DNA of 64,000 bases from Octopus vulgaris (taxonomy: Eukaryota), in contig OX597824.1 in the NCBI GenBank assembly GCA_951406725.2, positions 84,754,001-84,818,000 of the forward strand, in the 5' to 3' direction. The position numbers and the translations under genes are program-made. Below, piece after piece: positions 5,290-50,895 of the stretch (the stretch's first letter is position 1; each line of letters begins with the position of its first letter). A model generated the notes under the pieces. The model was given only the letters and a program-made list of their open reading frames with translations, was not told the DNA's origin and made no database searches.

Positions 5290-6295
5290 TATTGACAACC
5301 ATCAGAAAATAGTAGATTTACTGTCACTCTGCTGATTTTAGATTTGGAGACAAATTTCTCGGGTGAAAGAAACAACTGCAAAATCAGAACTGGATATCCC
5401 CACCATCTTCCAGATTACAAATGCAGCTTCACTCATAGCTGAGAACAATCCCAAAAGAATAGGCTTTAAAATATATCCCTTCAATATATCACGCGTTGGA
5501 GAGGGAAAAGTTGTCAGAAGTTCACACCCTTATTAGACGGTGGTTATCATGGCGTCATGGAAGGGTTCAAATTGTATTCTTCAATGGCCTTTATTGTTCC
5601 AACATAATCCTTCGTTCTCCTTAGTCCTGCTTCGAGATAGCTCCTAGTCAGTTTCCGGCAGTTTTTTTCTCTGCTGGAGAACTACTACATAAAGTCGGAC
5701 CAGTACACGGGAATTATCTCTCCTGCTTCCATGTTCTCGGCACATCTCCAGCCTTTAATTATTGTTTTTCACACACGTAGTTGTTAAACTTGGAGGGCGG
5801 TTGACATTTCCGGATTAACTTACGAACTTCATGATCAGACGGTGCTTTAGATGTATTGAGGGAGTCAACAATGTCACACAACAGAGAATCGGCAGTAATT
5901 GATACCTCAGACAATTCAGGAACTTTACCTGGCATTTCAGATAAGGGTTCGGTAAATTTACCTGGCAATTCAGGTAACCCAGAAACTTCAGAAATAACAG
6001 GAACTTCACCTGCGGTGACAGTAGGAATACGAGGTACTACTATTTCGGCTAACCGGGTTGGGAACTTCAGACGTTCATCTACATGTTGTTGTAACACGCT
6101 TTCACACACTCTCGCTTCAATATTTATAGCCCCCAATCGTCGGGTTATAGGGTTTTCCACCTAGTGTTCATCAGCTCCAAAAATTTCGTATAAGAACCCC
6201 ATCGTCTTTTCTAAATGTACGCGTTGGATGTAATATCTTGGTCTATTACTGCTAAGTCAGAACTGGACATTTGTTCCTTCTCAATCCATGCCTGA

Positions 6296-6973
6296 TTCAT
6301 AAGGTCCGGTTTCCCGGTTTCCTTGGCGTATAGGTTCCCCACCTGGACAGGACGCCGGTCTGTCGCAGGTTAGCTGCTAGATGCAGGAAGAAAGAGTGAG
6401 AGAAAGTTGTGGCTAAAGAGTCAGCAGAAGTTTGCCATTACCTTCTGCCGGAGCCGCGTGGAGCTTCATCATCATCATCATTGTTCGACCGTGGTCGAGA
6501 CAATGGAATTTACCATGCTACGCCAGACTTCACGGTCCATCATAGCATTACGGAGGTCCTGTTGCTGGATGCCTGTATCCCTGGAGATTACATCAGGGTA
6601 GGAGAGTGTGCGCCCTCTGGTATCGCGAGCAGATGGCTTCCAGAGGAGAGGAGTAGAAATTGCCTCGTTTTCAGCTCTACAACAATGTCCAGCAAACTGG
6701 ACTCTCCTACCTTTCACAAGAGATGACACAGGTGGTAGTTTCCCATATATTTGCATTTTGGTTGGACGCTTCCACGAGAGATTTTGAGCTCTGATAAGGA
6801 GGCGAGTGTATGTTCCATCCAACCGCCTCTCAAGCTTCTTTGATAACGTCCATAGTAGAAGTGGAGCTTAGGTGTTTCGCTCATAAACACACACATCGCC
6901 CGGTCTGAGATTCGAACCCGCGATCCCTCGGCCGCGTGTCCGCTACTCTAACCACTAGGCCATATGCCTCTAC
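6296..6973 (-). mobile_element. SINE family C (tail T1) split by an RTE LINE insertion
   Basis: Reverse complement of 4224-4529 in two pieces, 6296-6466 and 6861-6973. Confidence 0.88.
6467..6860 (-). mobile_element. 5'-truncated RTE-clade LINE 3' end
   Basis: ORF 6478-6822 contains DGTYTRLLIRAQNLSWK..RRVQFAGHCCR..DREVWR; (TGA)n tail; 9-bp TSD GTGGAGCTT at 6458-6466 and 6861-6869. Confidence 0.88.
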
Positions 6974-14151: not shown

Positions 14152-14424
14152 ATGTTGCCACTAGGCAATACTGACGACTCTTCAAACATGGTTGCCAGAA
14201 GCGCAGAGCCTCTTTATCGCTAGAGACACACAGATTCGGTGGTGGGAGAAGGGTGAAACGAAATTTAGTGAAAAATATTTCTTCTCCAAAATATCTTTCA
14301 CTAGATTTCCATCTTTTCCCACCTCCGAATCAACCTAGAATCTGTGTCCCACCTAGCTCAAAAGAGGCTATGCATTTTCAAAAATCACCTCTGAAAATTC
14401 GTCAGTATTGTCCAGTGGTAATAT
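14152..14424. mobile_element. Decayed foldback/MITE, palindromic over its whole length
   Basis: Arm pairs CAATACTGACGA/TCGTCAGTATTG, AGCCTCTTT/AAAGAGGCT and TAGTGAAAAATATTT/AAATATCTTTCACTA, centred near 14284. Confidence 0.7.
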
Positions 14425-21867: not shown

Positions 21868-21968
21868 AAAAATATAGAACACTTCGCGAATTTGCGTGTC
21901 ATCCTTGCACAGATGTCATGCTAATCTTCTCTGTATTGTTCCAATTTTAGAATGTGTACCGCCGTAGC
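21868..21968 (-). pseudogene. U6 snRNA retro-pseudogene, near full length
   Basis: Minus strand matches U6 over ~101 nt (CTAAAATTGGAAC..TACAGAGAAGATTAGCATG..GCAAGGATGACACGCAAATTCG..TATTTTT) with about a dozen substitutions. ACAGAGA and AGC are intact, the ISL is mutated and the first ~6 nt are missing. Confidence 0.95.
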
Positions 21969-22037
21969 TATAATTCGACATCTGCAGTAACAGCTGCAAC
22001 CATAGAAGCACCACCAACAAAATCAGCAACAGCAACA

Positions 22038-22715: not shown

Positions 22716-23014
22716 TTATTTCTTTATTGCCCACAAAGGGGCTAAACACAGAGGGGACAAACAAGGCAGACATATGTATTAAGTCGATTACATCGACCCC
22801 AGTGCGTAACTGTACTTATTTAATCGACCCCGAAAGGACGAAAGGCAAAGTCGGCCTTGGCAGAATTCTGAGTTCAAATTCTGCCAAGGTCGACTTTGCC
22901 TTTCATCCTTTCGGGGTCGATTAAACAAGTACCAGTTACGCACTGGGGTCGATATCATCGACTTAATACCTATGTCTGCCTTGTTTGTCCCCTCTGTGTT
23001 TAGCCCCTTGTGGG
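22716..23014. repeat. Head-to-head SINE B palindrome (~138-bp arms, ~9-nt loop)
   Basis: 22730-22867 is a near-perfect reverse complement of 22877-23014. Confidence 0.92.
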
Positions 23015-23825: not shown

Positions 23826-24656
23826 CATGTTGAAAGTTTTATAGTAAAATGTTAAAAAAAAATTCAAAAAAAGTCCCGTAACATTTAATTCATTTTTTGT
23901 TGTTTCTAAATTCAGTCACGTAGCTTTATTATAATCTAACTACTAAGCTTTAAAAAAATCGTTCCAGTGGAACAATTATACCTTTTATATATATCACCAA
24001 ATTTCACTTCACAAAACGAAAATGCAATTGCTTCGAACCATAGCACACGTAGCAGAAGGAATGTTCAAATGATAGATCAATTCAAGTGTCCAGTGGATAA
24101 TATGAATTTGTAGTGACTTGAAATGGCGGCTGTGTAAGTGAGCCAGTGTGTGTAGGCGTAAACTGTGAAACCAGCTGTTCACATAACAGTAGTTATTGAA
24201 TTTTTAATCATTTTGAGATCATATAATACTCAATTTTACTCAAGATTATGTGTTATCAGCGGTCAATAAACAAACAAATTTCCGTTTTATAAGTATTATA
24301 GATAAACATAAATAGGTAGATACCTTATATATATATATATATAACACCAAACTTCACAAAATGAAAATACCATTGATTCGAATCGTAGCACATGTAACGC
24401 AAGGAGTGTTCAAATAGTTGATCGATTCAAAAAGTGCTTATCTGTAATTTCGAGAGACCCTTCCCTCCTCGTCAGGCGTGGAGGGAAGAGTCTCTTTTCA
24501 GAAAAATGATTCGTTAACGAGTGAGTCGGATGTGAGATCGGTTGAAAACAAGCAAAAAAAAAAAAACTAACAAAGAAAAGAAAAAAATCTGAGGCTTCCT
24601 CTTCCTCACCCCCAAGCAGCTTTCAGGGGGTAAAAAAGCATGTCAGAGGTCAGATT

Positions 24657-25909: not shown

Positions 25910-26971
25910 GTATCAACAGAACAACTTCAAATTAACGCAGCCAAAAATGCCCACTCCATAGAACAGGAAATATAAAAGTAACGACAAATGGGGTTGGAAT
26001 TTAGACCTTTTGCTCGTTAAGAGTGGCGACTAGTAGTCTTTAACTACGATCTGACACATAATTTTGTCGATAGATTTATAGGTCTGGCTACCTCCAGGGA
26101 TCACTTGTGAGATCTATGCCCTCCCCCACCCCCCAAAAAACATCTCACAGTGATTTTTTGGTGGGTGGCAGAATCGTTAACGTGTCGGACAAAATACTTA
26201 GCGGTAATTCATCAGACTTTACGTTCAAATTTCGCCGAGGTCGACTTTTTCTTTTATTTTCTTGGGGTCGATGAAATAGGTATCAGTTGAGCACTGGGGT
26301 CGAAATAATCGTTTAGTTTCCGCCTCTAAAATTTCCGGCCTTGTGTTTAGAGTAGAAAAGATTTTTATTATAAAAGAAGGCGGGGTGTGTTTGCATTAAA
26401 AAAAAAAGAAAAATCCACCACTTTGTGAAAGGGAATCAATGACCCCAAAACAGTATGGAATACTGGGTTAAACAATTCTTCTTTCACTGATGAAGTCTAA
26501 TACGGCCGAAATTTGTCCGGATTTTATCACCTAACAACCGAAACTCAGAATTACTACCAGCACCCTGCACTCTATTTTAATAAGGTTAATCATTGGGGTT
26601 GCCTCCCTGTCTTTCCCAATCAAATTTAATCATTAAAATAATGAACTTCTCTCTTCACCATAGGTGCAAGCATAAGTCATTAAAGTTGGTTGGCTCATTA
26701 AATTAAGTATGTTAACGTCCAATTTTCTAGTTGATAAAAAGTGCTTATCTAGTGACTCAGAGATGTCAGCTAGGATGTTTGTAATAAAACTGGAATAAGT
26801 GCACTAATTCTATGAAGTTTCATTTAATTCATTTAAATAAATACACAATATAGCTTCCGGGTAACTTCTCTGGATACAGTCAAAGTAGCAGCCAGAGTTA
26901 AAAGCATTTAAACGTTACACACGCAGAAAGCTTATTTATAAATATGGCCATAACCAACTATGAAAAATTAA

Positions 26972-28429: not shown

Positions 28430-28910
28430 TGGCATTTCTTCTGACTCTTTACATTCTGAGTTCAAATGCTGCCGAGATCAACTTTGCCTTTCAGCTCTTC
28501 GGGGGTCGACAAAATAAAGTACCAGTCAACTAAGGCGATCGATGCAATTGACTTGTCACCTACCCTCAGAAATTGCCGACCTTGAACCCTGCAACTGACC
28601 GGCGTCCCGTTCAGGGGAATGTGGTGATCCCGTTCGCTTATACGCCATAGAAACTCTTTACATTCTGAGTTCAAATGCTGCCGAGATCAACTTTGCCTTT
28701 CAGCTCTTCGGGAGTCGACAAAATAAAGTACCAGTCAACTAAGGCGATCGATGCAATTGACTTGTCACCAACCCTCAGAAATTGCCGACCTTGAACCCTG
28801 CAACTGACCGGCGTCCCGTTCAGGGGTATGTGGTGATCCCGTTCGCTTATACGCTATAGAAACCGGGTAACCAACAAAATGGGTCCTAGGACTCGAGGAA
28901 AAACAAAATC
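28430..28910 (+). mobile_element. Hybrid SINE (B-type body plus T1'-type tail) with a 209-bp tandem duplication
   Basis: 28444-28652 is repeated almost identically at 28653-28861; an older homolog lies at 51783-52020. Confidence 0.82.
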
Positions 28911-34838: not shown

Positions 34839-36090
34839 CGTCCGCCATTACGTTCTGAGTTCAAATTCCGCCGAGGTCATCCTTTTGGGAATCAATAAAA
34901 ATAAGTACCACTTGAACACTGGAGTCTACGATCGACTTATCCTCTTCCCTGAAATTTCTTCCCTTGTGCCAAAATTTGATATTGTTAATATAACTCAGTG
35001 AGAGATCAGCACACGCCTTCAAAGTGATGCTGGGTCACAAATATACGAAGCCCAATATCCCATCATCACTACCTGTTGCATAAGGGTACACTAGGCACAT
35101 GCATCACAACCATATGTGCGCGGCATGGTGGCCTTATATCAAGATCACGTATACCCTTGCAGGTTGGGGCCCAGTTAGGAATTTCTTCAAGTAGAGCAGT
35201 CCATTCCGCTCAAAAAGGTCCCTGAATTAAGGTTGTTTAAGGATGATAAACGAAACACCTTTCGGGATCAAATATTATGTGTACATGTGTAACTAAAGTA
35301 ATAATACGTTTTAATATATTGTATAATGTCTTTTATCTCACACCTCATATTTATGTAAATGTGTATAAAATGTACATTCCTAAGAGTTTTGTAATACGGT
35401 GTATGAATGAATGTGCTATTGAGGGCGCAGTAAATGAAAGAATTGTTGTTGCTGTTGTTGTTGTTGTATATGAATTTGATAGCGTGAAGATTTCCTTTTA
35501 ATTTTCCATTCGAAACACACTTTATTCAAGCATAACAAACCCAGATTTTCTTTCGAATACTTGTAAAAAGAACTGTGATTGCTTAAAGTAACGCTGCCAT
35601 TAACACTGCGGTGGGTAGACAACAGAAGTATGAGGTTTGTTTCACAAACTCACAACATTTTATTTACTCACATTACTTTTTCGCAACTACAAAAGGACAA
35701 CCACACACAATTAATTCAACTGACAAAACACTACAAAAAGCCAAAGCACACAACTAAATATACGAAAGGAACAAAATAAAGAGTGTAGTGAACATTCGAT
35801 AGAAGAAAATGTTCCGAATATTCAAATAAGCAATTTAGAAAACAGTACAAGTAACAAGGATCGCACTAGCGATGGTTCCAAATATTGCGATCTGTTGAAA
35901 AAGTATTTGTGTGAAGGCAAACCTTCCTCCAATGTAAAGTGAACAGACAGGATTTTCGAAACATCACAGTTATAAAGAAATAAATGTAGATGCGAAAATT
36001 TTGTGTAACTGAACAGCATTTTCATTTTTGGATTTGGTTTGCAAGATTCTTTATATGAGTTCGTGTGTTGAAGCATATTCTGTTGTATCT

Positions 36091-36273
36091 GGGGAGAGTC
36101 ATTTTCTTTTTGTGCCTTATAATGTAACACACTCACCGGTAAAATTTCCACTTTTTTCTTTTTTTTTTTTAAGAAAATAGAAATAAGAAAAAGAATAAGA
36201 AATAAGAAATAAGTGGAAATTTTGCCGGTGAGTGTGTTACATTATAAAGCACAAAAAGAAAACGACTCTCCCC
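36091..36273. repeat. Inverted repeat, ~63-bp arms with T-rich/A-rich spacer
   Basis: GGGGAGAGTC..AAAATTTCCACTT (36091-36153) versus AAGTGGAAATTTT..GACTCTCCCC (36211-36273), about 4 differences. Confidence 0.92.
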
Positions 36274-36887
36274 ATGAACAGCAATTCTTTACCGCAACAG
36301 CTCATCCAGGAGAGAGCAAAGAGAAAAATGACACCACAGCTTAGCAAAAAAAAAAAAAAACGGAAAGGGATTAAATTTTCCCTCAAGTTTTACAAACTCT
36401 CCGGGAAATATTGGTTTCAAATGTTAGCACAAGGCCAGTAATTTCGGGAAGAGTGCAAGTCGATTACATCGACCCCAGTACTCAACCGGTAATTATTTTA
36501 TCGACCCCGACGGAATTTGGACTCAGATCTTAAAGGCGGACAAAACGCCTCTAAACATTTTTTCTGGCGTCCTAATAGTTTAACCAGCTCGCCTCCTTAG
36601 CTCTTCAGGACATATTGAGAGTGAAATTATCTCAACTGGAAAGTGCCTTGATGTTTTTGTTCCAACCCTTTACGTTCTGAATTTAAACCTCGCTGATGTC
36701 AACCCGGCTTTTCATCCATCCAAGATCGATAAAATGAAGCACCTATCTTGAACTGGAGTAAGTCAAAGCAATCGATTAATTCCTCTTTTCAGAATTGTTG
36801 GACTGATGCCTATAACAGAGGCAGTGATTGTTTATTGTTGGTGGCGGTGGTGGTTGTTGGTAGCTGTTAATGTTGTTGTTGTTGTTG

Positions 36888-41520: not shown

Positions 41521-42324
41521 AAACAGAGCCGTTTCTATCCAAGAAGACTCAACTTATTTTGACTCCCAGCTTACCTGAATTTATATGACAGACTGTCGGT
41601 AAACACAGTTTTTTTTTCTTTTAATTCACATATTTTTAATGCCTATTTATAACCTTAAACCATTACTTGCTGACTGTGATGTTGTCAAATTACAAACGCT
41701 AGTACACACATCTGGCCTGTCTGTTTATATCGACATCATTATATTTCATTCAGCCGCGTTACTGTGTCCTGTAAGAAGATATATTCACCAATGGACGAAA
41801 CAGTCAAAAATAGGTTGGTACGTGTCAATATTAAGATCATTCATTGACACAGAAACAACGGTGTTATTGTATATCGATAACAATGATGGTCTAAGAGAGA
41901 CTCCGTTGGCCTGATTTTTAATAATCTATGATACTGACAGTATTAGTTTTCTTGATTAGATTACAGGGTAATGGGGATTTGGAAGATAGTGGCGCTCATC
42001 ACAATAATGGAGGCATTATGTTGCAGGTAATTCCTTCCACTGGTAACGCTTTCACGGATTTAAACTTCGCATAATTCATTATTTGTAGGAAGTCGTTGAG
42101 CGGTAATAAGCTCTTTGTACGCCGAATTTATATCAAAGGTTCAGTTACCTTTTGTGTCTTACCGCTTAACATATTTGAATTTGCCAACAGAAGCAGATGA
42201 ACTTAGCGAACTTTTCTATGAACTCTCCCATTGGCTATGTGTTACAGACGCAGACTATCACAAGTTCCCATGGTTTCTGGGTTTTTCTCTAAGTCCTCGG
42301 CAGAAAAAAGAAGGCTTTCTCATC

Positions 42325-42485
42325 CGTGTGTAAAGGTAACACACTTAGTCATGTTAACAAAGGGATGTGGGTTTGGGTCCCACGCGAATGGGAAAGACTT
42401 CTTTTTTCTGTCGAGGGCTTATATGCCCCGTTATTAGACTATTTTCCGTAGTCATTGCACGGTGAACGGCATAAGCTTTAAGCTT
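42325..42485 (+). mobile_element. Old tRNA-headed SINE family F
   Basis: Shares GTCCCACGCG, GTCGAGG, TTATTAGACTATTTTC, TAGTCATTGC and ATAAGCTTTAAG with the reverse complement of 61853-62010. Confidence 0.65.
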
Positions 42486-42930: not shown

Positions 42931-43130
42931 TAATAATAATTATAACATCGAAAAACACCTCAGGAAGGAGAACCCAGGTTCGAAATTTCCCCAAGACACC
43001 TGATGAAGGTTGGAGGGTATATCAGCCGAAACGTTGTGTTAGCAACAAACAAGATGAGGACAAATACCTATCAAATGTAAATAATGTAAATAATGTACAT
43101 AATTCCTCATCTCTTAAATATAGAACTGTA
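42931..43130 (+). mobile_element. Family H2 hammerhead-bearing element
   Basis: Homologous to 24700-24852; extends further 3' into (TA)n. Confidence 0.8.
42995..43040 (+). ncRNA. Minimal type I hammerhead ribozyme with canonical core
   Basis: GACAC-CTGATGA-A-GGTTGG-AGGGTATA-TCAGCC-GAAAC-GTT-GTGTT: stem I GACAC/GTGTT, 6-bp stem II with wobbles, palindromic AACGTT stem III. Confidence 0.75.
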
Positions 43131-50062: not shown

Positions 50063-50553
50063 GTAATGTAGATAGGAGAGGAACTTGTTTTAAAACATAC
50101 AGTTCGGACATGTAACAGACATGTTTTAATCGTACACACACACAAAGGACTTATTGTTAATGTTGATTATGAATATCAACAATATAGCTGAGAGGAAATA
50201 CCTCCGAGGAGCTTTCTACATATTGTAGGGTCGTACATATGTTATACAGTACATTTTTTTTTAGAAATCCGCATCAACTTAGATTATTCATGCAACTGGT
50301 TTACAGAAACTCCGCTTGTTATTGTTTAAAATCTAAAACAAACGAAAAACAAAAAAGATAATTTCAACAAAAAAAAAAAAAAGCCAACTGAGAAATTTTT
50401 TGAACATATAGACAATGCAGATGGGAATAGATATCTCGTCTTTGAAGCTAAAAGGAGAAATCAAAGAACGTTTCGGTATCAATTTCCCTCTTCAGCGAAG
50501 CATATTTTACTCAGTACAACTTAGAAGTGGTCTATCTGTGTTTGTGTGTGCGA

Positions 50554-50588
<35 letters not shown>

Positions 50589-50726
50589 TTCAGTAAAATT
50601 TAGATTCAGATGAATATGGTACTTAAGCTAAAGGCACCAGAATTTAGTATGGTATTATCCATATAATTCAAAATGGGGTGATTATATAGTCAAAATAAGC
50701 AACACGGATATCCAGAGGTAATGCAG

Positions 50727-50757
50727 AAAAATATGGAACGTTTCACGAATTTTGCGT
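50727..50757 (-). pseudogene. U6 snRNA 3'-terminal fragment (31 nt)
   Basis: AAAAATATGGAACGTTTCACGAATTTTGCGT versus the U6 reverse complement AAAAATATGGAACGCTTCACGAATTTGCGT (one substitution, one extra T). Confidence 0.85.
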
Positions 50758-50790
50758 ACCTCTGGATATCCTTGTTGCTTATTTTGATGT

Positions 50791-50895
<105 letters not shown>

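Follow-up and report, generated by a model that had tools for sequence, protein, structure and literature searches.

Two groups of genetic elements offer the closest precedents for the locus described here, which lies in a 64,000-nucleotide stretch of the Octopus vulgaris genome (assembly GCA_951406725.2, contig OX597824.1, positions 84,754,001 to 84,818,000 of the forward strand; hereafter the window, with positions counted from its first letter). The first group comprises chimeras of the small nuclear RNA (snRNA) U6 with long interspersed nuclear elements (LINEs). Mature U6 carries five terminal U residues and a 2′,3′-cyclic phosphate, and RtcB joins U6 to L1 or GFP RNA bearing a 5′-hydroxyl (5′-OH), yielding clean junctions with 4-6 T residues independently of the L1 reverse transcriptase (RT) (PMC6789731). 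The second group comprises Penelope-like elements (PLEs), whose features include (TA)n targets, inverted 5′-truncated copies, and alternative 3′ ends (PMC8557442). The purified PLE protein of the anole cuts and extends both target strands, and it starts at two internal sites (PMC11167929). Some PLEs also carry hammerhead ribozymes, whose function is called unclear in PMC8557442. Self-cleaving ribozymes leave a 5′-OH on the 3′ product (PMC8782182), and hammerhead-cut RNA of animal retrozymes is circularized by RtcB far better than by self-ligation (PMC7229834). At positions 50587-50792 of the window, the 3′ end of U6 is joined to what is likely a PLE exactly at a predicted hammerhead cleavage site, and we tentatively favor ligation of U6 to ribozyme-cut PLE RNA, followed by retrotransposition, as the origin of this junction, although our doubts slightly outweigh our confidence.

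An original prediction made from the letters of this stretch held that a 31-bp inverted repeat with one mismatch encloses ATGCAG and the U6 3′ end in antisense, and this description is borne out. Over 31 bp, the arm at 50690-50720 is the reverse complement of the arm at 50757-50787 apart from a single mismatch at 50705, and the 36-nt loop consists of ATGCAG plus the antisense U6 end. The arm pattern occurs at only these two places in the window, whereas two matches were obtained in 0 of 100 shuffles. The hairpin with a U6 3′ end in its loop is a real feature of this sequence.

Element positions are counted along the minus strand, so that 50726 is +1 and 50587 is +140. To the left is a (TA)16 microsatellite (50555-50586) that forms the left portion of the insertion target, and contig pieces reaching 50572 indicate that other copies of the family likewise finish in (TA)n here. 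The direct copy (50587-50726, minus strand) consists of the 3′-terminal 140 nt of an abundant repeat that is likely a PLE pseudo-long terminal repeat (pseudo-LTR), and its body occurs once within the window. Folding of this 140-nt piece is no better than that of shuffles (z of -0.25). It extends from +1, the first base past the predicted hammerhead cut, to the long family 3′ end at +140, a boundary placed by family contigs to within about 2 nt. By arm alignment, arm 1 (50690-50720, minus strand) is simply +37 to +7 of the direct copy and not a separate part. The first six bases of this copy (50721-50726, minus strand) are predicted to be the 3′ strand of hammerhead stem I, as judged by comparing the parent continuation with File S2 of PMC8557442. 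Next come the 3′-terminal 31 nt of U6 (50727-50757, minus strand), which align with U6 in the sense of the direct copy. The inverted copy (50757-50792, plus strand) comprises arm 2 plus 5 nt, corresponds to +7 to +42, and has 1 nt in common with the U6 piece. Contig depth over 50788-50803 and loose contig ends indicate that it stops at a second, short 3′ end of the family; that is, arm 2 is repeat sequence to about 50792, five bases past its pairing with arm 1. The right portion of the target (50793-50893) is (TA)5 followed by (TG)46, with no discernible target-site duplication (TSD). The description of the unit as flanked by (TA)n is apt on the left and needs this amendment on the right.

The U6 assignment rests on alignment to another U6 copy in the window, with which the piece is identical at 26 of 31 columns; 0 of 5000 loop shuffles scored against that copy as well as the real loop does. 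Scored alone against Rfam, the piece reaches 14.6 bits (E=1; the gathering score is 44). Its 3′ terminus is intact and ends in five T, and neither untemplated bases nor microhomology are present at the junction with the direct copy. The original prediction had spoken of the exact 3′-terminal 31 nt of U6, which is right for the terminus and too strong for the piece as a whole. Other Rfam matches near the unit are low-scoring and concern only microsatellites or the hairpin shape.

The U6 copy used for this comparison (21868-21971, minus strand) is near full length and decayed, scores 91.4 bits, and carries a 10-nt duplication of its 3′ end. An abundant SINE-like (short interspersed nuclear element-like) repeat begins no more than 3 nt after it, another repeat lies about 65 nt upstream, and no flanking duplication is apparent by eye. 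This copy is a second U6-derived insert within 29 kb and possibly another chimera.

The nature of the partner was assessed with contigs from public sequencing runs aligned to 50572-50808 at 80% likeness. The runs listed numbered 24, from 13 studies with 5 organism labels; none of them contained half of the 17 query words, and none was listed as a source of RNA. Of these runs, 4 (3 studies, 3 organism labels) were aligned; one run may derive from RNA, and expression is not claimed on that basis. In these four runs, 4533, 2666, 1458, and 158 contigs fall on the unit, with many variant positions; summed contig depth is not taken as copy number. These alignments identify 50587-50726 as the 3′ terminus of a repeat family that is abundant and whose copies finish in (TA)n at 50587. 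Past 50726, the parent continues as one sequence in all four runs (76, 63, 40, and 3 contigs; agreement of 0.84-0.98), and this continuation is neither U6 nor the inverted arm. Because the parent sequence goes on past 50726, U6 begins at precisely the point where parental sequence breaks off in this copy. It also follows that the inverted repeat is not part of the parent consensus. The U6 part itself has next to no contig cover and no contig spans the unit, which is uninformative, given that records resembling human sequence are removed and rare variants are lost from contigs. The direct-copy body was also considered as the native 3′ flank of a U6 gene; this was ruled out because the body is a repeat with many copies, and its parent runs on into sequence other than U6.

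The unit is likely a single insertion of this (TA)n-flanked repeat, which is itself likely a PLE. The original suggestion of a non-L1, possibly PLE origin is in keeping with a 5′-truncated copy of an abundant (TA)n-inserted repeat that has PLE-type anatomy and carries U6 in sense. The repeat behaves like a PLE pseudo-LTR, and we do not file it as a member of any clade because no open reading frame (ORF) is linked to it, be it the single ORF of PLEs with its RT and GIY-YIG endonuclease or one with the C-terminal endonuclease typical of the Hydra clade (without CCHH, DKT and RWK motifs, CxCX5C linker). Two motifs from the window had no matches in metagenome, prokaryote-genome, or viral collections. 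Motif searches of the supplement of PMC13282606, whose Zenodo repeat library was outside their scope, and of a collection of papers also gave no matches.

The family contigs reveal a second end as well. Contig cover on the (TA)n to the right of arm 2 is of similar magnitude to that on the left of +140 (bin ratios of 0.6-1.3 in the three larger runs), and it drops to 2-4% on the (TG)n past the right (TA)n. In three runs, 35, 35, and 27 contigs leave at 50801 into further (AT)n. These contigs mark +42 as another 3′ end at which family copies recurrently stop. Among the 15 joints listed for three runs, 11 pass from a forward to an inverted copy with entry at +13 to +36, and U6 is present in none of these. 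The remaining 4 are strand changes in which family sequence fits arm 2 better than the mutated arm 1. An arrangement known from PLEs, a 5′-truncated copy next to an inverted 5′-truncated copy, is present both at our locus and in 11 of the 15 listed joints. A perfect 8-bp palindrome lies in the arm at 50706-50713, and several other family copies pass from forward to inverted copy at or beside it, so this palindrome may be a preferred joining site.

Because inverted short copies and the end at 50792 recur elsewhere without U6, the inverted arm is most likely the family's ordinary inverted second copy rather than a product of snap-back. This finding bears on the mechanism that was originally proposed, in which the RT switched from the element to U6 RNA and then snapped back onto the nascent strand; on this reading, the switch would fall at an arbitrary point and the hammerhead-like motif would be coincidental. 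In its favor, the end of the U6 complementary DNA (cDNA) would pair with ATGCAG beside arm 1, albeit imperfectly (with G-T pairs and one base out of register), and the ribozyme is seen only in part. However, snap-back could end anywhere and is not expected to stop at a family end, yet arm 2 stops at a recurrent one. Arm 2 also departs from arm 1 at 50705, where it has the base found in family contigs, and again beyond +37, although a later mutation of arm 1 is also possible. Moreover, the placement of the junction exactly at the cut of the motif would be due to chance. We therefore consider this model improbable and its second switch unsupported, whereas its first switch, from the element to U6 RNA, is possible and is no longer required given a junction at a predicted hammerhead cut.

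A short hairpin between microsatellites might also be suspected to be an assembly or library artefact. This seems very unlikely to us, since there are differences between the two arms and between the U6 piece and the other U6 copy of the window, and both element parts stop at biologically meaningful family positions. Furthermore, there is no obvious route by which a DNA library would generate such a junction.

The central observation is the relation between the junction and a motif in the parent. Immediately before +1 on the element strand, the parent reads GCA, TGAA, a self-complementary 8-mer (AC..GT), and an unpaired A. We predict that this stretch constitutes the 3′ half of a hammerhead, with the 3′ arm of stem II, the GAA core, stem III, and the cleavage base in succession. 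The layout matches the type I hammerheads of Hydra-clade PLEs (File S2 of PMC8557442), and the nine letters GCATGAAAC are common to 9 of the 25 Hydra-clade families in that file by our own count. The five terminal T of U6 join exactly at the predicted cut. Window positions that follow such a 3′ half with the third stem-III pair number 13 of 128,000, and a looser form of the motif gives 51.

The positions of the two family ends can be compared with those of Hydra-clade PLEs. There, the distance from the cut to the annotated 3′ end is 29-47 nt for 10 of 24 families, 62-69 nt for 2, 87-152 nt for 11, and 354 nt for 1 (Files S1 and S2 of PMC8557442). These offsets are good to about 1 nt; Penelope-18_HMa, which carries its motif at the 5′ end, is omitted from them, as is the antisense row of Penelope-13_HM. 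The family ends at +42 and +140 fall within the two main distance classes.

Because the junction sits exactly at the predicted hammerhead cut, ligation is at least as likely an explanation as a template switch, and it is favored because five T stand at the junction, with bases neither added nor shared. In the sequence of events that we tentatively prefer, self-cleavage would leave a 5′-OH at +1, and RtcB would then join the cyclic-phosphate end of U6 to this 5′-OH, by analogy with U6/L1. One target strand would prime a cDNA that starts at +140, crosses the junction, and reaches 31 nt into U6, while the other target strand would prime a second cDNA from +42. Joining of the two cDNAs head to head over the 1 nt of microhomology would create the hairpin. 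It may be, although we stop just short of calling it probable, that PLE hammerheads cut RNA in the germ line, that the 5′-OH product is a real template for retrotransposition, and that host RtcB ligates U6 onto this product. Insertion of a U6 fragment into the cut by double ligation is the least likely of the possibilities considered here.

The same insertion and the same ribozyme cut could also yield this junction without ligation, if the RT ran off the cut RNA at +1 and jumped onto a free U6 3′ end. Both of these readings need the ribozyme cut, and a jump is expected to produce the same junction position and the same intact U6 3′ end. In addition, two other copies among those listed, both free of U6, break off from the direct copy at +1 and +2, so it is no rarity for RT to end close to the cut. 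However, end-to-end jumps often add bases, as is the case for R2 template jumps, whereas our junction has neither untemplated nor shared bases. A jump also leaves unexplained the choice of the one abundant RNA that has a cyclic-phosphate end. The longer-standing model for U6/LINE chimeras is template switching (PMC4476161 and PMC11838501), but chimeric L1 RNA forms without active RT (PMC6789731). On balance, we regard an RT jump as a serious contender that is nevertheless unlikely.

Another possibility is that two events occurred, with an ordinary fold-back PLE copy forming first by joining over three bases and a U6 cDNA fragment being added afterward, for instance where the hairpin loop had broken. 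Here the parent's three bases past 50726, which are its last three before the cut, equal the first three bases of arm 2 on the far side of the U6 piece, although U6 also accounts for one of them. Against this, neither a TSD nor poly(A) is found around the U6 piece, and U6 would have had to hit the exact predicted cut among about 180 positions, in sense and with an exact 3′ end. We judge such a history to be slightly more doubtful than the snap-back model, which already seems improbable.

Several points weigh against ligation at a ribozyme cut, or against the PLE assignment on which it builds. The evidence comes from a single locus, the DNA junction would look alike after ligation and after an end-to-end RT jump, and the two U6-free copies that leave at +1 and +2 fit a process without ligation. 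The three bases outside the U6 piece slightly favor later insertion and would also fit double ligation. The hammerhead motif was recognized post hoc, and the window frequencies given above therefore overstate the surprise. Neither the CUGANGA half nor a stem I partner is present within the 30 nt of parent visible past the junction, so the ribozyme is incomplete as seen. For the anole PLE, ribozyme cleavage is dispensable in vitro, and no RNA-seq reads begin or end at the cut (PMC11167929). The unit is a non-coding end of about 200 bp, and no RT or GIY-YIG ORF is linked to it within those same 30 nt of parent sequence. The 11 fold-back joints are represented by one contig each, with 21-28 nt on a side at 80% likeness; they are weak singly and count only jointly. 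The two family ends are 98 nt apart, compared with a PLE tail of 30-40 nt. Finally, no identity was found with the accessible 3′ ends of Hydra-1_Obim, Naiad_Obim, and Naiad_Ovul, either by eye or with eight short motifs (0 matches in an exact search over line-wrapped FASTA).

If ligation at the ribozyme cut proves true, a U6 end fused at such a site would be a sign of both in vivo cleavage and retrotransposition of the cut RNA. U6/PLE chimeras at ribozyme sites would then leave, across the genomes of PLE-rich animals, a trace of ribozyme activity in vivo that could be counted. In addition, the RtcB model of U6 chimeras would reach beyond LINEs, to a case with a known source of 5′-OH.

Hammerhead-like sequences occur elsewhere in the window. 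Positions 42995-43042 (plus strand) hold a complete minimal type I hammerhead with stem I, CUGAUGA, a 6-bp stem II, GAAA, and a palindromic stem III (folding z of -0.25), which is likely a remnant of a different PLE family. Core-like motifs without clear stem I pairing are present at 50455-50505 (minus), 26477-26525 (plus), and 24435-24485 (minus), the first of which lies 50 nt left of the microsatellite of the unit. These three may be decayed PLE ends or chance occurrences.

Further features of the window include other fold-back inverted repeats, found by blastn self-complementarity at 22730-23014 (93%), 36090-36274 (81%), 14152-14424 (67%), and 42290-42421 (71%). There is also a tandem duplication at 28444-28863 with a 209-bp unit and 98% identity. 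The SINE-like repeats of the window are in keeping with octopus DNA. Open frames at 6478-6867 (minus strand, 129 aa) and 5759-6160 (minus strand, 133 aa) resemble the ends of retroelement proteins.

Among described systems, the literature searched yielded neither a chimera of U6 with a PLE nor a U6 end joined at a ribozyme cut; Repbase, Dfam, the Zenodo library, and the bulk of subscription papers were outside this search and could name the family. The word "Penelope" occurs zero times in PMC4476161 and PMC11838501. For O. vulgaris itself, an annotation names U-derived and "U-L1" SINE families without detail (PMC13282606). Dada transposons, which target U6, and the subterminal repeats of Helentrons were dropped as candidates because the truncated body, intact U6 3′ end, and ribozyme motif fit neither.

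Hydra-clade PLEs (PMC8557442) resemble the unit in their (TA)n target, the layout of the hammerhead 3′ half, the two 3′-end distances, and the inverted 5′-truncated copy. They differ in that no ORF is seen here, the sequence is unlike that of Hydra-1_Obim, and the spacing of the two ends exceeds their 30-40 nt tail. Insertion into (TA)n is common to the Hydra clade, Naiad, and Neptune, and so is not diagnostic. The Naiad PLEs of octopuses (Naiad_Obim, Naiad_Ovul, and Naiad_Omin) likewise have a (TA)n target, abundant short 3′ ends, and inverted copies. However, Naiads lack canonical hammerheads, and the 3′ ends of Naiad_Obim and Naiad_Ovul are unlike the unit; for the Naiad_Omin end, a motif search was the sole comparison and gave no matches. 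Animal non-LTR retrozymes (PMC7229834; bioRxiv 10.64898/2026.07.22.740005), which have been proposed to be non-autonomous PLE derivatives, are also short and non-coding, with type I hammerheads whose cut ends are RtcB substrates. In contrast to our solitary copy with its inverted arm, they form tandem repeats of 170-400 nt that circularize.

The U6/LINE chimeras, which involve L1 and also L2 and RTE, share with this locus a U6 3′ end with 4-6 T (here five) in sense orientation, the lack of microhomology, and a 5′-truncated element (PMC6789731). In the opossum, 5′-truncated U6 is joined to RTE-type elements without a TSD (PMC4476161). Unlike the LINE chimeras, most of which carry full-length U6, ours has 31 nt only, and its partner is likely a PLE that ends in (TA)n, with neither poly(A) nor a discernible TSD and without an L1 endonuclease site. 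As a structure, the hairpin is nothing unusual for PLEs. What is new is the joining of U6 at a cut predicted for a ribozyme: no sequence motif marks the junctions of L1 (PMC6789731), whereas here the 5′ end of the partner coincides with the predicted site of self-cleavage.
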